DNA from: a virus
Reading direction: 5' to 3' (one strand)
Length of the DNA: 64,000 nucleotides
Virus record (IMG/VR): IMGVR_UViG_3300032213_002832
Span: 32,001-96,000 of that record
Both the position numbers and the translations under genes were made by a program. Below, piece after piece: positions 3,821 to 55,532 of the stretch (the stretch's first letter is position 1; each line of letters starts with the position of its first letter). The notes beneath the pieces were generated by a model. That model made no database searches. It was not told where the DNA came from and saw nothing but the letters and a program-made list of their open reading frames with translations.

Positions 3821-3923
3821 GTTGTTGTTAGATTCATTGTACCCGCGACGAAGCACTTTTTTAGTAAAAAATAAAAATAAATATTTTATGTATAATGCAC
3901 TCATTAATGTTATGGAGATTTTA

Positions 3924-4433
3924 ATGGCTAAAAAAGATTATAAAATTGAAGTTGAATTACTAGAAGGCGGTAAGTTACCAACTAAAGCAAACTCTACTGA
4001 CGCAGGGTTCGACGTATTTGCCACAGAAGACTTGATAATTTTTCCAGGTCAAGTTATTAAAACACCGCTTAATATTCGTATGAAGCTTCCAGCTGGATCT
4101 TGGGCTCGCATTGAAACAAAGAGCGGGCTAGGTTCTAAAGGCATGCTAGTATATGCTGGAGTTGTGGATGAAGGATACCGTGGTATTCCACATGTGATCG
4201 CAACCAACTTAAACTGGAACTTAGAGTGGGCACTTCAGACAAATGGTGGATTTACACCAATAGAGGGAACTGGTGCTAAAGCAATATTACCAATAATTAT
4301 TAAAAAAGGTGAAAAGCTTGCGCAGATCACTATGAATGAGCATTCTAACAAATACTTTATGGTACAAGTTGATAAAGTTGATACAGATACAGCTAGAGCA
4401 ACTGGAGGATTTGGGTCCACTGGTAAAACATAG
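3924..4433 (+). CDS. dut: trimeric dUTPase
   Basis: motifs DAGFDV, KSGL, GVVDEGYRG, KLAQ, RATGGFGSTG; start moved to ATG 3924 behind GGAG RBS. Confidence 0.93.
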   Translation: MAKKDYKIEVELLEGGKLPTKANSTDAGFDVFATEDLIIFPGQVIKTPLNIRMKLPAGSWARIETKSGLGSKGMLVYAGVVDEGYRGIPHVIATNLNWNLEWALQTNGGFTPIEGTGAKAILPIIIKKGEKLAQITMNEHSNKYFMVQVDKVDTDTARATGGFGSTGKT

Positions 4434-4474
4434 GTAAGTGTAGTATAATGCTCACATGTATCCAGGAGGAATGT

Positions 4475-5167
4475 GTGGGCAATAATTTAGATAAGCTTTT
4501 TACTTCAAATATACGAATCTCAAATCTTAATCCCTTCCATTCAGACGCTGTCTGGCCTGCCGGAATCGAAATATGTATCACTCGAGTACCAATACGTAAA
4601 CGAGATGGTTATGATGATGCGATGATTCAAGAATTAGCTTTAAAATTAAAAAATAATATGGTTAAAAATGGAATAGTATTTCTAATATGCTATGCGCCAG
4701 TTGAAGCTAAATTTAGACCTTTTCAGGTTGCTAAGTTTATGACTGATGCTGGTTTTAATCATATTGATAATATTGTAATTCAAAAAACCTGGTATCCAGG
4801 TAAACGATCGGAAATTAACTTAGTCAACTCTCACGAATACGTTATGTACTTTTGTAACGGTGATGTATGGAGTCTAGACCGACTCCCAATCAGACAGTAC
4901 TTAGGTACTGATCCCGAAATATCATGTCCTGGAAACACGTGGAAGGTCCAAACAGGTTCACTCGATGAATCAATACCTCCAGATTTAGCCGAATTATTGC
5001 TTCGCATGACTGACTCACTTCCAGGATCTATAGTTTTTGACCCATTTTTAGGAACAAGTTCCACTCTCCTAGCTTCTCTTAAACTTGGCCATTCTTTCTT
5101 TGGATTTGAATCAGATCCAAAAAGAATAAAAAAATATGAAAAAATAGTAGAGGAGTTTAATAAATGA
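4475..5167 (+). CDS. beta-class N4C/N6A DNA methyltransferase homologue with degenerate catalytic motif IV
   Basis: NSHEYVMYF, IVFDPFLGTSSTL (motif I), FFGFE; expected DPPY position reads TRVPI; probable GTG start after GGAGGA. Confidence 0.75.
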   Translation: MGNNLDKLFTSNIRISNLNPFHSDAVWPAGIEICITRVPIRKRDGYDDAMIQELALKLKNNMVKNGIVFLICYAPVEAKFRPFQVAKFMTDAGFNHIDNIVIQKTWYPGKRSEINLVNSHEYVMYFCNGDVWSLDRLPIRQYLGTDPEISCPGNTWKVQTGSLDESIPPDLAELLLRMTDSLPGSIVFDPFLGTSSTLLASLKLGHSFFGFESDPKRIKKYEKIVEEFNK

Positions 5168-26812: not shown

Positions 26813-26882
26813 ACACTTATTTTATTTCATGATGTGTATAATTATTGAGAATAATCTGTCTTAAAGATAAGAGGTGCTAGTA

Positions 26883-27809
26883 ATGGCGTGGGTTATATGC
26901 GAAGGTTTAGATAGAGTTGGCAAGAGCACAGTTGCCGAACTGTATAAGCGACAAGGATTTCAGGTAATCCACATGTCGGCACCTAATAAGAAATATAAAC
27001 AACCAGGATACTCTGGACCATCATATTTAGATGAAATACTAGATATGTTAATGGAACATGACGGTAAAGACGTATTCTGGGATAGAAGTTGGTATGGCGA
27101 ATCTTCTATATGGCCTCATGTCTATGGTAGAGAGCCAGCGCTTTCAGAAGACGAATTAGAAATTCTTCAAGAATATGAAGAGCGAAATGAAGCTCTTAAA
27201 ATTCTAATGACTGACCCTAATACAGAAGCACATTGGAAACGATGCGTTGAAAACAACGAGCCATTGACACACCCGCAATTTCGTTTAGCCAATAGTCTGT
27301 ACGCAAAACTTGCACATAAGTATAACTTTGTGCCAAAACAATTGAGTGACTTTAACCATGACATTAGTAAACCTAAAGCAAAAAATGATGAACAAATTAG
27401 TAATGTTGATTCTGAAGTATCAGAAAACACAAAAACTAACAATACTAGAAAAGACATCGTTACTAGCAATATTAGCATCGTTGCGAATACTAAACCTATT
27501 CATGAAAAAAACTCCGGTCTTGAAAGACTCGAAAAAGCTAACGCAATTTCAGCAATCCTCAGCAAGCGCCTTATTAAACAAAGAGGCGATGCGTTCGACG
27601 AACTCGAAGGAGAAGTTACCGACTTCCTTAAGGGACGATTGGAAGAACTTTTAGGTGCTAAAAAGGCTTCTACTCCCTCATTTGCAGAAGAAGAGATTGA
27701 AATACTCAAGGTATTCTGTAAACGTTTAATGGAAAAAGAAAAAGAATCGCAAAGTGTACAGACAAATGTAAGTAAAACCTCTATTAATAGACAACCAATC
27801 AGGAGATAG
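26883..27809 (+). CDS. atypical dNMP (thymidylate-like) kinase with C-terminal helical extension
   Basis: ICEGLDRVGKST P-loop, DRSWYGE..WP.VYGR motif. Confidence 0.75.
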   Translation: MAWVICEGLDRVGKSTVAELYKRQGFQVIHMSAPNKKYKQPGYSGPSYLDEILDMLMEHDGKDVFWDRSWYGESSIWPHVYGREPALSEDELEILQEYEERNEALKILMTDPNTEAHWKRCVENNEPLTHPQFRLANSLYAKLAHKYNFVPKQLSDFNHDISKPKAKNDEQISNVDSEVSENTKTNNTRKDIVTSNISIVANTKPIHEKNSGLERLEKANAISAILSKRLIKQRGDAFDELEGEVTDFLKGRLEELLGAKKASTPSFAEEEIEILKVFCKRLMEKEKESQSVQTNVSKTSINRQPIRR

Positions 27810-32850: not shown

Positions 32851-32903
32851 ATAACCTATAAAATTATTTATTTATGTACAATATCCATATGATGTGGAGA
32901 TGT

Positions 32904-33581
32904 ATGAAAAAGAAATGTCAATATATAGTTGTAGAAGGTTTGGATGGTGTTGGAAAAACAACACAAACTCAAAAATTAGTAGATTATCTACGTAGTCTAA
33001 ATTATAAGGTTTTACAAACAAAAGAACCAGGTTCTGAACATGCTCCACTAACAATGGAACTTCGTAATATAATGTTAAATGCTAAATATGATACCTCACT
33101 CACTGTCGCAGCAAGAGAACTCATTAGTCTTGCTATACGTTCCATCCATCTAGAAAAAGTTATTATACCAGCCCAATACGAGTACGACTTCATAATACAA
33201 GATCGTGGTATCCTATCTGGTCTCGCTTATGGTGAAGCATGTGGTAACGATTTAGGTTGGATAATGAATATTTCTAATACAATTGTTAAAAATGCGGATA
33301 AAACGCTAGATGGACAACCTACTTTGCTATATGATAAGGTAATAGTGTTATCTGGTAATGCTAAAAGTAGTTTACACAAAGCTGCCCAAGCTAAACAAGA
33401 GTTCACACACGGAGACGCAATAGAAAACAAAGGTGTATCCTTTATGGAATCTGTTGGTATAAATATGTTAAATTATTCTAATTTCTTTAATACTAGACAC
33501 ATTGATGTGGATGGTAAAAATATAGATGAAGTTTTTAGTGAAATCATTAATACTCTTAATTTAGAGGAAACCAATGTATGA
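32904..33581 (+). CDS. tmk: thymidylate kinase
   Basis: VEGLDGVGKTTQ, TKEPG, QDRG.LS..AY; start moved to ATG 32904. Confidence 0.9.
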   Translation: MKKKCQYIVVEGLDGVGKTTQTQKLVDYLRSLNYKVLQTKEPGSEHAPLTMELRNIMLNAKYDTSLTVAARELISLAIRSIHLEKVIIPAQYEYDFIIQDRGILSGLAYGEACGNDLGWIMNISNTIVKNADKTLDGQPTLLYDKVIVLSGNAKSSLHKAAQAKQEFTHGDAIENKGVSFMESVGINMLNYSNFFNTRHIDVDGKNIDEVFSEIINTLNLEETNV

Positions 33582-50429: not shown

Positions 50430-51285
50430 ACGATTTAATAGCCTTGCGAAGTTTATCTTTAGTGCTATCTTTAAACTCTAATTTATTAAATATATCATCT
50501 ATATCTTTTGTATACTGAGGTCGCATTCTTAAATCTTCTAAAGAAATATCTACATCTAATTTAACTAGATCTGTCAGTTGTTTGCTTAACCTTATCTTAT
50601 CCATACTCTTTATAAGCTTATCTCTATACTTAGCTGGTGTACTGTGTAGCCTATACTCAATCTCTTCCACACCACCATATTGAGATAGTAGGTCTTGCGC
50701 AGCTTTTGGCCCAATACCTTCTCCACCAGGTATGTTGTCTGCCTTGTCTCCACATAGTGCCAAGTAATCACTGATCTGACTTGGCTTAACACCAAACTTC
50801 TCAAATGCCGTTGCTTCATCATATGTTAGGTTCTTCATAGAATCAAATATAGAGACATTCTCATCAATAAGCTGTAACATATCCTTGTCGCCAGTTAAAA
50901 TAACAATATCTAGCTCATGTTTAAACTTATGTGTAATAGTAGCAATCAGATCATCTGCCTCATACCCAGACGCAGTGATTCCATATATGCCTAGCATACC
51001 TATTATCTTTCTTATAATCAATTCTTGCGCAGATACGGCGTTTACTTTCACTCTATTAGCTTTGTATTCTGGATAGATATCTCTACGTACACTTTTGCCA
51101 TCTTGCGCATCATATGTTATCGCTACGTACTTAGGTTTCTTTTCAGAAATGAATTTACATAATAAGCTTATTGTGCCATATATAGCACCAGAAGGCATCC
51201 CATGGCTCGTATATAGATCACTATGTGCGTGAAACGAACGATGGATAAAACTGCTTATGTCGATTATATATAGTTTATCTTTCAT
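50422..51285 (-). CDS. 5'-3' exonuclease (Pol I N-domain/flap endonuclease family)
   Basis: IDISSF, YPEYKANR, EADD, TGDKD, GDKADNIPG..GIGPK.A H3TH. Confidence 0.95.
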   Translation of the reverse strand: MKDKLYIIDISSFIHRSFHAHSDLYTSHGMPSGAIYGTISLLCKFISEKKPKYVAITYDAQDGKSVRRDIYPEYKANRVKVNAVSAQELIIRKIIGMLGIYGITASGYEADDLIATITHKFKHELDIVILTGDKDMLQLIDENVSIFDSMKNLTYDEATAFEKFGVKPSQISDYLALCGDKADNIPGGEGIGPKAAQDLLSQYGGVEEIEYRLHSTPAKYRDKLIKSMDKIRLSKQLTDLVKLDVDISLEDLRMRPQYTKDIDDIFNKLEFKDSTKDKLRKAIKSYE

Positions 51286-51643
51286 GTTGCGGTGATTTCA
51301 ATATGATTTCGTAAACTGGTTTACCTAACTTCATCATCTCTTTCTTCATGCTTAGACTACCTTTAGATGTTCCACTCCATATAAGGAGCAAAGCATCTCC
51401 ATATTCAGCCATTCTTTTATTTCGTATAGGTCCAGCAGCATTGCCATCATTCTTCCAATTGGCTTGGAATACTTTAGGTTCTTTCTCTAAGAATAAAGAG
51501 GACCACTCTTCGCCAGCTTCATCCACAAAGCCACCACTACCACTCACAACCTCTTTAACTTTTAAGCGAAAGTGCTTAACACATTGGTCCACAAAGTCAG
51601 AGTCAACTAGCAACTCTCTACTTCCAGCAATAACTAATCTCAT
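51275..51643 (-). CDS. SLOG-family (DUF2493/YspA-like) protein
   Basis: IAGSR, VVSG, AAGPIRN..MA, W.G.SKGS..M. Confidence 0.85.
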   Translation of the reverse strand: MRLVIAGSRELLVDSDFVDQCVKHFRLKVKEVVSGSGGFVDEAGEEWSSLFLEKEPKVFQANWKNDGNAAGPIRNKRMAEYGDALLLIWSGTSKGSLSMKKEMMKLGKPVYEIILKSPQHER

Positions 51644-52092
51644 ACAAATGCCTCATACTTTAATCTGATATACCCTTCTGGAGTTTGTGATTCAATAACT
51701 CTAATATCTTTCATATTCATTATAGTATCGAAGTCTCTATACTTAGTTTCACACACTACTTCAGTTATACCACTTTGATATAAGAGTCGCATACAAGAAA
51801 CACAGGGGCTCATCGTACATACAATCATACAGTCTTTGGTAGAGATGCCGCTATACGCGCAATTCGCAATTAGGTTTACTTCGCTATGTACAATCACGGC
51901 ATACTTCTCTGGCCTAGTATTAGGCAAACTATCATCAGGAGCATTCCTAACAAAGCCATTACACCCTGTAGCTATGATAGCTCCACTGTTGTTATTAATG
52001 AGTACTGAACCCACTTTTGTTTCAGCATCATGACTTCGTAAAGATACATTTTTAGCAATTGCCATTGCTGTTTCAATCTTACTAGGTCTCAT
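51640..52092 (-). CDS. dCMP deaminase
   Basis: KVGSV, G.NG, HSE.N, SPCVSC. Confidence 0.92.
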   Translation of the reverse strand: MRPSKIETAMAIAKNVSLRSHDAETKVGSVLINNNSGAIIATGCNGFVRNAPDDSLPNTRPEKYAVIVHSEVNLIANCAYSGISTKDCMIVCTMSPCVSCMRLLYQSGITEVVCETKYRDFDTIMNMKDIRVIESQTPEGYIRLKYEAFV

Positions 52093-52176
52093 CCACACAC
52101 CCCTCACATGATATCTTTTAAGATTATACGGTTTAAATATAAAATCCTATGTTATAATAATTAGATAGGAGGATTT

Positions 52177-52365: not shown

Positions 52366-52553
52366 TCTTCTAAATCTGTTAGGGTTTCATCTAGTTCTAT
52401 ATCCAGCTCAGTACCGTCTGGTGGGGTGGCAGCTTTAAAACGCTTCACCTCAACTTCTTCTTCTACCCAACCCCTTTTAGGGCATTCATATCTAACAATA
52501 GTCTTATATACCAACTCTATCTTATCTTCATTACCTTCTTTTCTTTTTCGCAT
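52362..52553 (-). CDS. hypothetical protein
   Basis: 63-aa ORF overlapping upstream gene. Confidence 0.55.
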   Translation of the reverse strand: MRKRKEGNEDKIELVYKTIVRYECPKRGWVEEEVEVKRFKAATPPDGTELDIELDETLTDLED

Positions 52554-53109
52554 TCTCTGCCCTCATTAATTGAACAACCAAATCCCACTCACCATGTAGG
52601 CAATCCTCTATCGCCTTACGGTAGGATTCTACCGGCTTTGGTAAGCCTACTTGTTCAATATACCTCATCCAAGAGGTTAATGAGCCATATACTACTAATG
52701 TATTATATATACTTATTGGAGATATAACCTGTGATATAAACCTATCACAATGATCCGATTGATATGCCTGAGGATTGATTAATAATGCCTCTGTCGTCAT
52801 TTCAATATCGGCCTGTATCGTTTTGCTAGTTTCCAAATCTTGTGCGCCTACGGCACCAATATCCGGTATATAAGCCTCTAATTTACCACTCGTCTTCTCT
52901 GATGAGCATCTTAAGCCAAACTCTGAAAAAGTAAGCTGTACAAATAAAGGACACCGGATACTAAGCATGACATGGGTCATATCGGTGATCCGGTTATCTA
53001 TTGTGCCTCTAAAGTGGGTTTTTGAGATCCGCTTAAAGTCTTCCCGCATAGGAGACCCACTAAGTAGAGCAACCCAACCTTTATCAAGTACTGGCGTCCT
53101 GTTCAGCAT
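52531..53109 (-). CDS. ThyX-fold protein lacking the catalytic RHR motif
   Basis: VLDKGWVAL, H....I.CPLFV, R...P...Y......GSL.SW..Y match the ThyX scaffold; RHRxxSxxxxSxR is absent. Confidence 0.6.
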   Translation of the reverse strand: MLNRTPVLDKGWVALLSGSPMREDFKRISKTHFRGTIDNRITDMTHVMLSIRCPLFVQLTFSEFGLRCSSEKTSGKLEAYIPDIGAVGAQDLETSKTIQADIEMTTEALLINPQAYQSDHCDRFISQVISPISIYNTLVVYGSLTSWMRYIEQVGLPKPVESYRKAIEDCLHGEWDLVVQLMRAENAKKKRR

Positions 53110-53506
53110 CTTCTTCCTTTTTAAGGTAATCTACAAAGCCAGCTTTACAAGTAGCTTTTTTATTCTCAAGCTCACCAGACAACATAGCTTCCATAAGTAT
53201 TTCTACATGCTTTGCTTCAATGTAGTCGATAGTACAGGCATCTAGAACTTGTGGAGGTTTGCCGAAAGTTTTAGAAGGTATCATGGCTTTAGCATGAAGC
53301 TGTTGATCAATATGGATATTAGCTACAGTTTCTACCATCTCTAAGAAGTCAAATGGCCCACAAACTGACTCTGAGATAAACTTAGGCTTGGCTCTATCAC
53401 CAGTAGATATAGCAACAAGAAAGGTTTTATCTTTGATTTCAGAGAGATCCATTTCACCCAATTCTCCGATCCAAGTTTCAGGATCTGCTGTTGGTAAATC
53501 ACTCAT
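53084..53506 (-). CDS. hypothetical protein
   Basis: 140-aa ORF with AGGA RBS. Confidence 0.7.
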   Translation of the reverse strand: MSDLPTADPETWIGELGEMDLSEIKDKTFLVAISTGDRAKPKFISESVCGPFDFLEMVETVANIHIDQQLHAKAMIPSKTFGKPPQVLDACTIDYIEAKHVEILMEAMLSGELENKKATCKAGFVDYLKKEEDAEQDAST

Positions 53507-53559: not shown

Positions 53560-54045
53560 CTAGATAGGTTTAGCTTTTAAAACGTTTTTAAGATAAGTCT
53601 CAGCTTGTAATTTAGTTTTATGTTTTTTGCGTAGAGGATTTGAAATGGTTTTGCCGTTTCTAATAATGCCATATCCACTATCAATTTCATTTAAATCGTA
53701 TGTTACACCAGTTTCATCAGCATACTGATTAGATACCGATTTCGCTGGCACACTAACAGTTGGTTTGGCAATTGATGATAATCTACTTGTTACGGCCTTT
53801 TTAGCTATGATAAAAAATTCATCACCACTACTGCGATTCTTTCTAGATACATAGTCACCCTGCTGAAGTATATCTTTATATACTTTAATATCAACTGGCC
53901 CATGAATAACTGTTCCGTTTTGCTCTTTAGCTTCTACATGCGTATATTTCCCACTACGAATCTTTTCTATCTCAGATTTCCATATTAGTGTAGTATTCGC
54001 AAAACTCTCTGCTGATGTGGACTTCTTAATAGTTAATACTCTCAT
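53560..54045 (-). CDS. hypothetical basic protein
   Basis: 161-aa ORF behind the conserved 30-bp leader. Confidence 0.7.
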   Translation of the reverse strand: MRVLTIKKSTSAESFANTTLIWKSEIEKIRSGKYTHVEAKEQNGTVIHGPVDIKVYKDILQQGDYVSRKNRSSGDEFFIIAKKAVTSRLSSIAKPTVSVPAKSVSNQYADETGVTYDLNEIDSGYGIIRNGKTISNPLRKKHKTKLQAETYLKNVLKAKPI

Positions 54046-54090: not shown

Positions 54091-54867
54091 TTAACCTAGC
54101 ATCTTTAATATTGCGTCTTTATCTTTTTCATAGATATGGCAAGAATGAACCACGTGAGTGTAGTCGCCTTTAGTAAGTGTTGGGTACGTAGGTTTTAACT
54201 CATCAATCATCTTATCCATAAGAGATACAAAAAATGGAAGATCATACACTAGTCCGCGAAATAAATCATTAGACCTCATAACTACTGAAAAATACAACTT
54301 ATCATTACGTATTAAAAAATTACCGTGCATGGTACAGGTCTGATCTTTATTACCCATATATTGATGTTCTGGTAAACTAAATCGCAATATAGCTTGACGC
54401 GTATCTTTGTCTGCCTTTAAAGATTCTAAACACCATTCCCACGGCGATCGATAAATAGATTGAGCTCTTATACTAATCCCACCATCTTCAAAGCTACGCT
54501 TTTTAGTATACTCATAATTCTCATTACCACAACTCTTGTTTTCCCATATCAAATACCCGTAAGCCGAATTGATAGTCCCATCTGGATTGGCTATCTTCTC
54601 CCAAAACTTAGAGGCCTTAGCAAAATCTTCTACACGATTAGAGCGAGAATTGTAAAGCTCAACCTCTTTAGCTGTATAGTCAGCTATTACTTTATTTCGC
54701 TCTAAGTCTTTAGTGATAATAGGTTCAGAAACTGGATCAGAGACTGTAAAAGTGTAGTTTAAGATCTCTCTAACTGGCATTCCACGTGGTGATGCTATAA
54801 AATCTGGAAAGTACCATACTTGCTGTAGCGCGTCTAAATACGCTTCATGTATATTCTTGTATGTCAT
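54091..54867 (-). CDS. thymidylate-synthase-fold enzyme, dCMP hydroxymethylase/methylase type
   Basis: SPRG, NSAYG, DTRQA, catalytic Cys in DQTCT, MRSNDLFRGLVYD, SCHIYE. Confidence 0.85.
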   Translation of the reverse strand: MTYKNIHEAYLDALQQVWYFPDFIASPRGMPVREILNYTFTVSDPVSEPIITKDLERNKVIADYTAKEVELYNSRSNRVEDFAKASKFWEKIANPDGTINSAYGYLIWENKSCGNENYEYTKKRSFEDGGISIRAQSIYRSPWEWCLESLKADKDTRQAILRFSLPEHQYMGNKDQTCTMHGNFLIRNDKLYFSVVMRSNDLFRGLVYDLPFFVSLMDKMIDELKPTYPTLTKGDYTHVVHSCHIYEKDKDAILKMLG

Positions 54868-55532
54868 TTATATCCCTCTAAGAATTCTTCATCTCTATTA
54901 GATCTCATTTTCAATAATTCTACAAACATTGCGCGTTGATATTTATCTACCTTAAAACCTTTTTCAATATATTTTACTAATCTTTTTACAGTGATGCTTC
55001 TAGCTTCAGTCTGAAAAACAATTCTCTTATCTACACAGTCACCTATCGCACCTTGAACACTAATGACTTGGCGCTTAACTGGATCATAAGCTATGGCACA
55101 AGCTCTTATATCGAAGTGACTTATGAGATCTTCTGGGGTATTAAATGGTACACCTACAATTAGGTTGTAAGTAACGTTACGATAAACATGCGCACATAAA
55201 TCGTACATAAAATTAGTAGGTTTACTAAACCCATTAATAGCACACCATAAAGTAGCATGTTCTTTAGAATGGAAGTATATGTCAATATCGTTGTGAATTA
55301 TGCTTTGATTTATATAGTGGCACATATAAGAACCAGCTATAATCTCACCATTATCTACGTATTCTGACTCATTGAGCCAACGTAAGGCATTAATCGGACT
55401 AGTTAATATTAAGTTTTCATTTCTATAAAGAAATTCTGGTACTGGTTTATCGTTTAGTAAAAAACTATTTTGAATATCATCAATTTGCTTTTTATAATGT
55501 TCTTCCGCATTATATTCCATGAGTATATCCAT
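54864..55532 (-). CDS. Pol-beta superfamily nucleotidyltransferase (CCA/poly(A) polymerase head-like)
   Basis: IIAGS..NDIDIYF, FDI..CAIAYD, RLVKYIEKGF. Confidence 0.75.
   Translation of the reverse strand: MDILMEYNAEEHYKKQIDDIQNSFLLNDKPVPEFLYRNENLILTSPINALRWLNESEYVDNGEIIAGSYMCHYINQSIIHNDIDIYFHSKEHATLWCAINGFSKPTNFMYDLCAHVYRNVTYNLIVGVPFNTPEDLISHFDIRACAIAYDPVKRQVISVQGAIGDCVDKRIVFQTEARSITVKRLVKYIEKGFKVDKYQRAMFVELLKMRSNRDEEFLEGYK

Follow-up and report, generated by a model that had tools for sequence, protein, structure and literature searches.

We analysed a 64,000-nucleotide stretch of an uncultured phage (the window, i.e., that whole stretch, bases 32001-96000 of IMG/VR record IMGVR_UViG_3300032213_002832) that encodes a thymidylate synthase (TS)-fold enzyme with Asp instead of Asn at the base-selecting position, here called the Asp-type TS. 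With a probability of about 0.72, we assign this enzyme to the folate-dependent deoxycytidylate (dCMP) 5-hydroxymethylases of the phage T4 gp42 type. The assignment draws on the fold and residue signature of the protein, their conservation across the family, its position in the tree and its gene context. The product is most likely 5-hydroxymethyl-dCMP (5hm-dCMP), neither 5-methyl- nor 5-hydroxy-dCMP, and the phage DNA probably contains 5-hydroxymethylcytosine (5hmC). The complete record is 167,515 bp in length with 123-bp direct terminal repeats and is rated complete. Coordinates marked "genome" refer to the whole record; all others refer to the window.

54091-54867, minus strand: Asp-type TS-fold enzyme, predicted dCMP 5-hydroxymethylase, 258 amino acids (aa) (Pfam, PDB by sequence, AlphaFold2, Foldseek, residue mapping, trees)

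The open reading frame (ORF) is intact and encodes all 258 residues. The catalytic Cys is C178, in DQTC(178)TMHG. The base-selecting Asp is D209, the last residue of the motif MRSNDLFRGLVYD (residues 197-209), and its context is VVMRSNDLFRGLVYD(209)LPFF. The start codon overlaps the stop codon of the upstream gene in an ATGA, read directly within …GAGGGATATAAATGACAT…, and a GAGGGA Shine-Dalgarno-like box is found at this overlap.

Fold, active-site residues and family of the Asp-type enzyme

Pfam profile PF00303 matched the Asp-type TS at an E-value of 2.2e-12 (47.2 bits vs. a curated cut-off of 24.3), and the PHROGs match was phrog_160, "thymidylate synthase". The top PDB matches by sequence were the CMP hydroxymethylase MilA (1.3e-17) and T4 dCMP hydroxymethylase (dCH; 8.4e-16); ThyA proteins entered the list only at E 2e-5. 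An AlphaFold2 model built on 53 homologues had a mean predicted local distance difference test score (pLDDT) of 97.1. Foldseek ranked MilA first for this model (E 4.9e-21, template modelling (TM) score 0.75), followed by T4 dCH (about 2e-17) and ThyA (1e-14 and weaker). There were 396 PDB matches at E≤0.001 and, among the matches listed, all were TS-family chains. The TS alpha/beta fold, a profile score above the cut-off and the catalytic residue set place the protein in the TS superfamily (PF00303).

Published residue rules are given here in E. coli ThyA numbering (Ec). Asp instead of Asn at Ec177 changes the substrate from deoxyuridylate (dUMP) to dCMP (PMC8670742, PMC13326640), and Ec177, along with position 147, was the top residue associated with modified-cytosine virome contigs (PMC8670742). 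Asp or Glu three residues ahead of the catalytic Cys (Cys-3; T4 D145, ThyA L143), together with Ser94-x-Tyr96, has been described as "a signature for hydroxymethylation" (PMC6400193; for Cys-3 also PMC13326640). The T4 D145N variant is inactive and forms no 5hm-dCMP, and structural work on the T4 enzyme tied the Cys-3 Asp to water activation and to the blocking of hydride transfer (PMC6400193). Ser167 and Arg126' are the deoxyribose selectors; MilA carries Ala and Lys and prefers CMP (PMC5175136). Finally, a change of D169 to Asn marks the flavin-dependent 5-hydroxy-dCMP synthases in RB69, DLP3 and other phages (PMC13326640).

Positions were mapped by MAFFT against E. coli ThyA, gp42 of RB55 (T4-like), td and gp48 of RB69, the dUMP hydroxymethylase of SP8 and the single TS homologue of Xp12. 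All control enzymes follow the published rules, as listed below (residues up to the catalytic Cys, then positions 169 and 177).

T4-like gp42: D-F-M-C; Asp at 169; Asp at 177
RB69 gp48: E-Y-P-C; Asn at 169 (MRSQN); Asp at 177
SP8 dUMP hydroxymethylase: D-R-P-C; Asp at 169; Asn at 177
E. coli ThyA and RB69 td: L-x-P-C; Asp at 169; Asn at 177
Xp12 (5-methylcytosine phage): N-V-P-C; Asp at 169; Asp at 177

In HMMER and MAFFT alignments, D209 of the Asp-type TS aligned with T4 D179, MilA D186 and E. coli N177, and the Cys-3 residue was D175 (D175-Q-T-C178). The remaining residues and their E. coli equivalents were E68 (E58), S101-A-Y103 (the Tyr corresponds to Y94), R157 (R126), C178 (C146), T179 (H147), R198 (R166), S199 (S167), D201 (D169), H244 (H207) and Y246 (Y209). 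Both deoxyribose selectors, S199 and R157, are present in place of the Ala and Lys of MilA, which indicates a deoxyribose substrate. A CMP-specific, MilA-like enzyme was rejected because of the same Ser/Arg pair. The protein stops 12 residues past Y246, and the roughly 55-residue C-terminus of ThyA is missing. D209, T179, D175 and this short C-terminus set it apart from a canonical ThyA, which has Asn177, His147, a hydrophobic residue at 143 and a full C-terminus. D201 is likewise not the Asn expected at Ec D169 in a 5-hydroxy-dCMP synthase.

We counted the conservation of these residues in 120 close homologues and 131 cluster representatives (251 in all).

Asp at Cys-3: 120/120 close homologues, 130/131 representatives
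Asp at 177: 120/120 close homologues, 122/131 representatives
Asp at 169: 119/120 close homologues, 130/131 representatives

Ser two residues ahead of the conserved Tyr was present in 246 of the 251 aligned homologues, and the catalytic set of Cys, Arg, Tyr, Glu, His and Tyr was invariant or nearly so. The putative hydroxymethylase pattern is a property of the family and not a trait of a single sequence.

An IQ-TREE phylogeny of 142 sequences, with MilA not among them, placed the query in a 139-sequence clade together with T4 gp42, RB69 gp48 and the SP8 enzyme. This clade was split from E. coli ThyA, RB69 td and the phage's own second TS with an SH-like approximate likelihood ratio test (SH-aLRT) value of 99. 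In a tree with Xp12 added, the Xp12 methylase fell on the ThyA side (SH-aLRT 96.8). Seven sequences form a sister subclade in which position 177 has changed to Asn and Cys-3 is still Asp; these are presumably dUMP hydroxymethylases. The change shows that position 177 is subject to functional choice in this part of the tree.

Near the query's clade, the Asn-switched representatives with Asp at Cys-3 number eight (P0133, P0164, P0167, P0182, P0199, P0220, P0233 and P0268), seven in the one subclade and the eighth apart; presumably they are dUMP hydroxymethylases derived from dCMP enzymes, or the reverse. Two Asp-type TS homologues were also found 2 kb apart (1120-1881 and 3953-4633) in the cultured 53-kb Bacteroides phage BF486P3 (OP172668). 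In both, Cys-3 and positions 169 and 177 are all Asp, and the interval between the two genes contains a dUTPase gene.

The closest tblastn match of the Asp-type TS among 50,697 deposited phage genomes was to the uncultured 462-kb phage LR756500 (39.7% identity). The matches in cultured phages, e.g., T4-like phages, Enterococcus phage vipetofem and SP8, all had less than about 29% identity along most of the sequence, and megablast of 8 kb around the gene against the 50,697 phage records gave no match. In public metagenomes, 1,173 relatives passed E≤1e-5; identities were 62-88% for the best 120 of the 1,173, and their contigs reach about 180 kb. When representatives of 50%-identity clusters were searched exhaustively with HMMER, 1,027 clusters were detected at E≤1e-10.

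The initial annotation of this gene had proposed a TS-fold enzyme with a specificity Asp and a catalytic Cys, acting on cytosine before replication. D209, C178 and the PF00303 match (E 2.2e-12) bear out the first part, and the pre-replicative, cytosine-specific enzyme held on every sequence and structure test that we ran. A phylogeny with gp42, the SPO1 dUMP hydroxymethylase and ThyA had been suggested as a check; in our tree, the query grouped with gp42 and the SP8 dUMP hydroxymethylase and apart from ThyA. The annotation had allowed a methyl, hydroxymethyl or hydroxy group as the C5 modification. This choice is narrowed to hydroxymethyl, and away from the other two, by the acidic Cys-3, the retained D169 equivalent and the placement in the hydroxymethylase clade apart from the Xp12 methylase.

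Proposed pathway and gene context

The following genes of nucleotide metabolism bear on the proposed pathway.

51640-52107, minus strand: dCMP deaminase family protein, 2 kb downstream of the Asp-type TS (PF00383, E 3e-19)
32874-33581, plus strand: Tmk-family deoxynucleoside monophosphate (dNMP) kinase (PF02223, E 1e-18; TIGR00041, 1.8e-22, below cut-off)
3888-4433, plus strand: trimeric dUTPase with a roughly 30-aa insertion (PF00692; dut models; PDB dUTPases, E 7e-18)
genome 27116-27979, minus strand, about 4 kb left of the window: canonical ThyA, 287 aa, second PF00303 gene
genome 151750-153297, plus strand, outside the window: protein of 515 aa, MutT/MTH1-like Nudix domain spanning residues 98-200

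By homology to T4 dCH, Cys178 would attack C6 of dCMP, Asp209 would read and protonate N3/N4 of the cytosine, and Glu68 with Asp201 would open 5,10-methylene-tetrahydrofolate (methylene-THF). The resulting exocyclic methylene intermediate would be hydrated and not reduced, with the water placed by Asp175 together with Ser101 and Tyr103, and the reaction products would be 5hm-dCMP and THF. Conversion of 5hm-dCMP to 5hm-dCTP may proceed through the phage Tmk-family kinase, a candidate for the first phosphorylation, and host nucleoside diphosphate (NDP) kinase. The phage DnaE-type polymerase would then build 5hm-dCTP into DNA, giving 5-hydroxymethylcytosine in virion DNA. In this scheme dTMP would be supplied by the canonical ThyA of the phage with the dCMP deaminase and dUTPase, like td, cd and gp56 in T4.

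The canonical ThyA carries YQRSCDVLLGLPHN, Asn177, the Cys-His pair and a full-length C-terminus, with Pro and not Leu at the 143 position. Its gene sits among replication genes (Toprim primase and DnaB-like helicase). Since the same genome encodes this enzyme, the Asp-type TS is not needed for dTMP. A homologue of the Tmk-family kinase was found in 4 of 5 related genomes. Module conservation was counted in 24 related IMG/VR loci, 13 of which have a dCMP deaminase homologue no more than 10 kb from the TS gene. According to the MetaGPA data, a deaminase gene and a TS gene are linked within 3 kb in 70% of the modified-cytosine contigs and in 6% of the unmodified contigs (bioRxiv 10.1101/2024.12.05.627091). 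The pairing of an Asp-type TS homologue with a dCMP deaminase already serves as an accepted marker of modified-cytosine viromes (PMC8670742; bioRxiv 10.1101/2024.12.05.627091). We also considered whether the dUTPase could instead be a dCTPase or a dCTP deaminase. Its alignment is that of an ordinary trimeric dUTPase, the dCTP-deaminase model matched at no better than E 0.004, and both alternatives were rejected.

Pfam annotation was read for nearly the whole genome, from precomputed matches on identical metagenomic contigs and from our own scans; two large tail-type proteins, part of a third and some short ORFs at genome 144-151 kb lie outside these scans. The genome also encodes DnaE with an RNase_T exonuclease domain, RecA, DNA and RNA ligases, NAD-salvage genes and an N6_N4 methyltransferase homologue. 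Class II ribonucleotide reductase gave faint precomputed matches only.

The genes adjoining the Asp-type TS are as follows.

52531-53109, minus strand: ThyX-fold protein, 192 aa (AlphaFold2 pLDDT 87; Foldseek; profile vs. PDB; Atlas)
53084-53506, minus strand: acidic 140-aa protein, companion of the Asp-type TS, downstream in 17/24 loci
53560-54045, minus strand: 161-aa protein between the Asp-type TS and the conserved downstream genes, variable slot
54864-55532, minus strand: Gad2-family nucleotidyltransferase-like protein, 222 aa (precomputed PF26128; phrog_4400; weak Pox_polyA_pol NTase match, E 8e-4)

The most constant companion of the Asp-type TS was the ThyX-fold protein (18/24 loci). 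Foldseek aligned it with T. maritima ThyX at a TM score of 0.73-0.76, its family profile matched PDB ThyX at E 2e-7, and Atlas placed it next to Thy1 clusters with a score of 0.97. Alignment to ThyX revealed that the RHR triad, the S-G-R-Y-S (S-x-R-Y) segment and the His53 region are absent, so the protein cannot be a working ThyX. It has a nearly invariant Cys53 (KCP) and conserved D9, N112, D119, Y135 and Y163, and these residues could form a different site.

An upstream gene for a 129-aa sigma-region-2-like protein was found in 15 of the 24 loci, and the 161-aa protein had no homologue in any of them. The same was true of a 122-aa protein (51275-51643, minus strand), the gene of which shares 4 nt at its start with the end of the dCMP deaminase gene. 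This protein matched phrog_289 ("GTP-binding domain", E 5e-15) and, below threshold, Cap17-like_N (E 0.004). The 161-aa, 140-aa and 122-aa neighbours had no usable Pfam, NCBIfam, PDB or Atlas match, and PHROGs matched only the 122-aa protein.

The Gad2-like gene adjoins the TS gene in only 6 of the 24 loci. Gad2 (Gabija anti-defence 2) has been described as a predicted nucleotidyltransferase (bioRxiv 10.1101/2023.05.01.538930). The 222-aa protein is about half as long as the characterised 400-aa Gad2, and tblastn gave only two marginal matches, both in Aeromonas phages. We read the gene as a probable accessory for anti-defence that takes no part in the pathway.

Most of the gene calls made initially for this window were recovered: the dUTPase (3888-4433), the dCMP deaminase (51640-52107), the nucleotidyltransferase coupled through the ATGA overlap (precomputed PF26128, Gad2), the degenerate ThyX (the ThyX fold without its catalytic motifs), the proofreading DnaE (with the RNase_T domain) and the methyltransferase (the N6_N4 homologue). 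Of two proposed dNMP kinases, the Tmk-family protein at 32874-33581 stood; the ORF at 26874-27809 shares only the P-loop with it and was rejected. The SLOG protein was reduced to the sub-threshold Cap17-like_N match.

Points against the assignment and alternative readings

Several observations weigh against the hydroxymethylase reading or against a fully modified genome. The Asp-type TS has only 24-28% identity to any characterised enzyme, and for this reason its function rests on signatures. In five related genomes (four with a CheckV completeness of 91% or more), the Asp-type TS is the sole TS; the canonical ThyA copy of this phage therefore seems to be a recent acquisition. The phage dNMP kinase is Tmk-like and not a homologue of T4 gp1. 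When all six frames of the complete genome were searched with PF01503 (PRA-PH) and PF03819 (MazG), neither profile matched at E≤1, and MazG also had no match in the five related genomes. No glycosyltransferase or carbamoyltransferase Pfam family was detected on any gene scanned, although divergent transferases could escape such scans. In the search for a dCTPase and transferases in the rest of the genome, only the MutT-like Nudix protein of 515 aa emerged. It is kept in 5/5 related genomes at 48-52% identity and is the only candidate for a dCTP-clearing pyrophosphohydrolase. T4-type machinery for complete replacement and decoration is not demonstrable. Given that the genome shows no recognisable dCTPase or transferase dedicated to this task, only part of the cytosine may be replaced, and the modified base may carry no decoration.

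The tetranucleotide composition adds a further point. TGCA is the most depleted of the 256 tetranucleotides over the whole genome, with 161 sites vs. 566 expected from trinucleotides (observed/expected ratio (O/E) 0.28); the next-lowest O/E is 0.72. The depletion is uneven, with O/E 0.15 over genome 1-40 kb and 80-167 kb vs. 0.60 over 40-80 kb (window 8,000-48,000), which hints at a recently exchanged segment. Since it is absent from 16 related loci, the depletion is lineage-specific. Its pattern resembles avoidance of a restriction site. T4gt DNA, which contains 5hmC, is listed as resistant to HpyCH4V, an enzyme with the site TGCA (PMC7653180), and T4gt DNA as a whole resists 82% of type II enzymes. 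As TGCA is depleted and HpyCH4V is blocked by 5hmC, the phage lineage seems to have encountered restriction at a C-containing site. The depletion fits three readings: incomplete replacement, a host TGCA enzyme that tolerates hydroxymethylcytosine (hmC), or a modification-dependent enzyme that targets this context.

The modified-cytosine genome put forward in the initial annotation thus stands in part. The enzyme was upheld, the genome content is what we infer from it, and full replacement is weakened by the missing dCTPase and transferase and by TGCA avoidance. The statement that no glycosyltransferase is visible held for all scanned genes. The suggested further modification by a non-T4 route received no positive support, and the Gad2-family gene is adjacent in only 6/24 loci.

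A more speculative version, which we consider rather unlikely, is that the phage group makes modified cytosine without a dCTPase or known transferase, with the ThyX-fold pseudo-enzyme and the 140-aa protein as new pathway components and a final base that is neither plain nor glucosylated hmC. The two proteins could then provide a subunit with a regulatory or scaffolding role, or an enzyme acting further on 5hm-dCMP. Alternatively, they could inhibit host ThyX and in this way divert methylene-THF and dCMP.

It is unlikely that the Asp-type TS is a dCMP methyltransferase of the Xp12 type, which makes 5-methyl-dCMP, with the linked deaminase producing thymidine nucleotides from a portion of the 5-methyl-dC nucleotides. 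Asp at 177 and the linked dCMP deaminase fit this scheme, and the Xp12 model explains the layout of the five related genomes without a second TS (bioRxiv 10.1101/2024.12.05.627091). Owing to these five relatives, the Xp12 logic of a methyl-dCMP enzyme plus deaminase leading to thymidine stays a minority rival. However, Cys-3 is Asp in 250 of the 251 homologues and Asn in Xp12, the Xp12 enzyme groups with ThyA whereas the query groups with T4 gp42, RB69 gp48 and SP8, and the genome has its own ThyA. The query also lacks the roughly 55-residue ThyA C-terminus. In ThyA, this C-terminal tail shuts the active site for the reductive step.

Two other fates of the enzyme's product appear very unlikely to us, and about equally so. 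In the first, 5hm-dCMP is an intermediate that the linked deaminase converts to 5hm-dUMP, resulting in a thymine-replacing modification instead of modified cytosine. The deaminase linkage in 13/24 loci is in line with this, as is the report that some virome dCMP-deaminase homologues deaminate 5hmdC nucleotides in vivo (bioRxiv 10.1101/2024.12.05.627091). The canonical ThyA and dUTPase, however, point to normal dTMP use, and the sister subclade that switched to Asn177 suggests that 5-hydroxymethyluracil (hmU) lineages simply change the specificity residue. In addition, no 5-hmU DNA kinase or thymidine-hypermodification family turned up in the Pfam scans, with no search aimed at them.

In the second, the enzyme is active and its product is not destined for the genome: it would work on nucleotide pools, e.g., drain dCMP or folate one-carbon units, or make a signalling or anti-defence metabolite, possibly with the Gad2-like protein. 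The translational coupling to the Gad2-family gene, the lack of a detected dCTPase or transferase, and TGCA avoidance, which suggests that the DNA is not generally protected, all speak for it. Set against these points, the Gad2-like coupling occurs in only 6/24 loci, every characterised phage member of the clade feeds DNA synthesis, and the Tmk-family kinase is kept in 4/5 relatives.

A flavin-dependent 5-hydroxy-dCMP synthase of the RB69 gp48/DLP3 gp80 type, feeding glycosylated 5-hydroxycytosine, is highly improbable: the fold family, Asp177, acidic Cys-3 and short C-terminus are common to the query and RB69 gp48, but the D169N change is absent (Asp in the query, in 119/120 close homologues and in 130/131 representatives) and no glycosyltransferase or NDP-sugar genes were found.

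Significance and comparison with known systems

We favour the dCMP 5-hydroxymethylase reading over these alternatives. The principle that an Asp-type TS homologue leads to modified cytosine has been known since T4 and was extended to viromes by MetaGPA, and the annotation is one that a specialist would expect. What is added here is a new, distant member of a known enzyme kind in an unstudied phage group. If the assignment is true, a large uncultured phage group probably carries 5hmC in its DNA. This would affect digestion by restriction enzymes, bisulfite- or enzyme-based methylation sequencing, and maybe recovery in some library preparations. The group would also be a natural test of the limits of cytosine replacement without a dCTPase or sugar decoration. 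The conserved ThyX-fold pseudo-enzyme, the lack of a detected dCTPase and the TGCA avoidance are worth following.

Among the known systems, T4 gp42 (PDB 1B5E, 6A9A) shares with the query the TS fold, the tree clade, the catalytic Cys, the specificity Asp, the Cys-3 Asp and Ser-x-Tyr, as well as the equivalents of Glu60 and Asp171, the Ser/Arg deoxyribose selectors and Thr after the catalytic Cys. Both genomes encode a separate ThyA (td in addition to gene 42 in T4), a dCMP deaminase and a dUTP-hydrolysing enzyme. The query differs from gp42 in a 30-residue beta-hairpin insertion (about residues 112-140), in its low identity (24-28%) and in having 12 residues after the conserved Tyr vs. 28 in T4. 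Unlike T4, the phage genome yielded no gp56-type dCTPase, gp1-type kinase or alpha/beta-glucosyltransferases. MilA, the mildiomycin CMP 5-hydroxymethylase (PDB 5JNH), is the best PDB match and has the same specificity Asp and Cys-3 Asp. It is, however, a bacterial enzyme about 60 residues longer than the query, and its Ala176 and Lys133' favour ribose whereas the query has Ser and Arg.

RB69 gp48 and DLP3 gp80 (PMC13326640) belong to the same clade and have Asp177, an acidic Cys-3 and a similarly short C-terminus. These enzymes carry Asn at D169 and use flavin and O2, whereas the query retains Asp and its genome has no arabinosyl-/glycosyltransferase cluster. The Xp12 dCMP methyltransferase (MT664984) resembles the query in Asp177 and in the linked dCMP-deaminase-family gene. 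It differs in the Asn at Cys-3, the Pro after Cys, a much stronger PF00303 match (E 7e-42 vs. 2e-12 for the query) and its grouping with ThyA. The SPO1/SP8 dUMP hydroxymethylases have Asn177, specific for uracil, Asn after the catalytic Cys and a long C-terminal extension, in contrast to the query; they share with it the Asp at Cys-3 and a position on the hydroxymethylase side of the tree.

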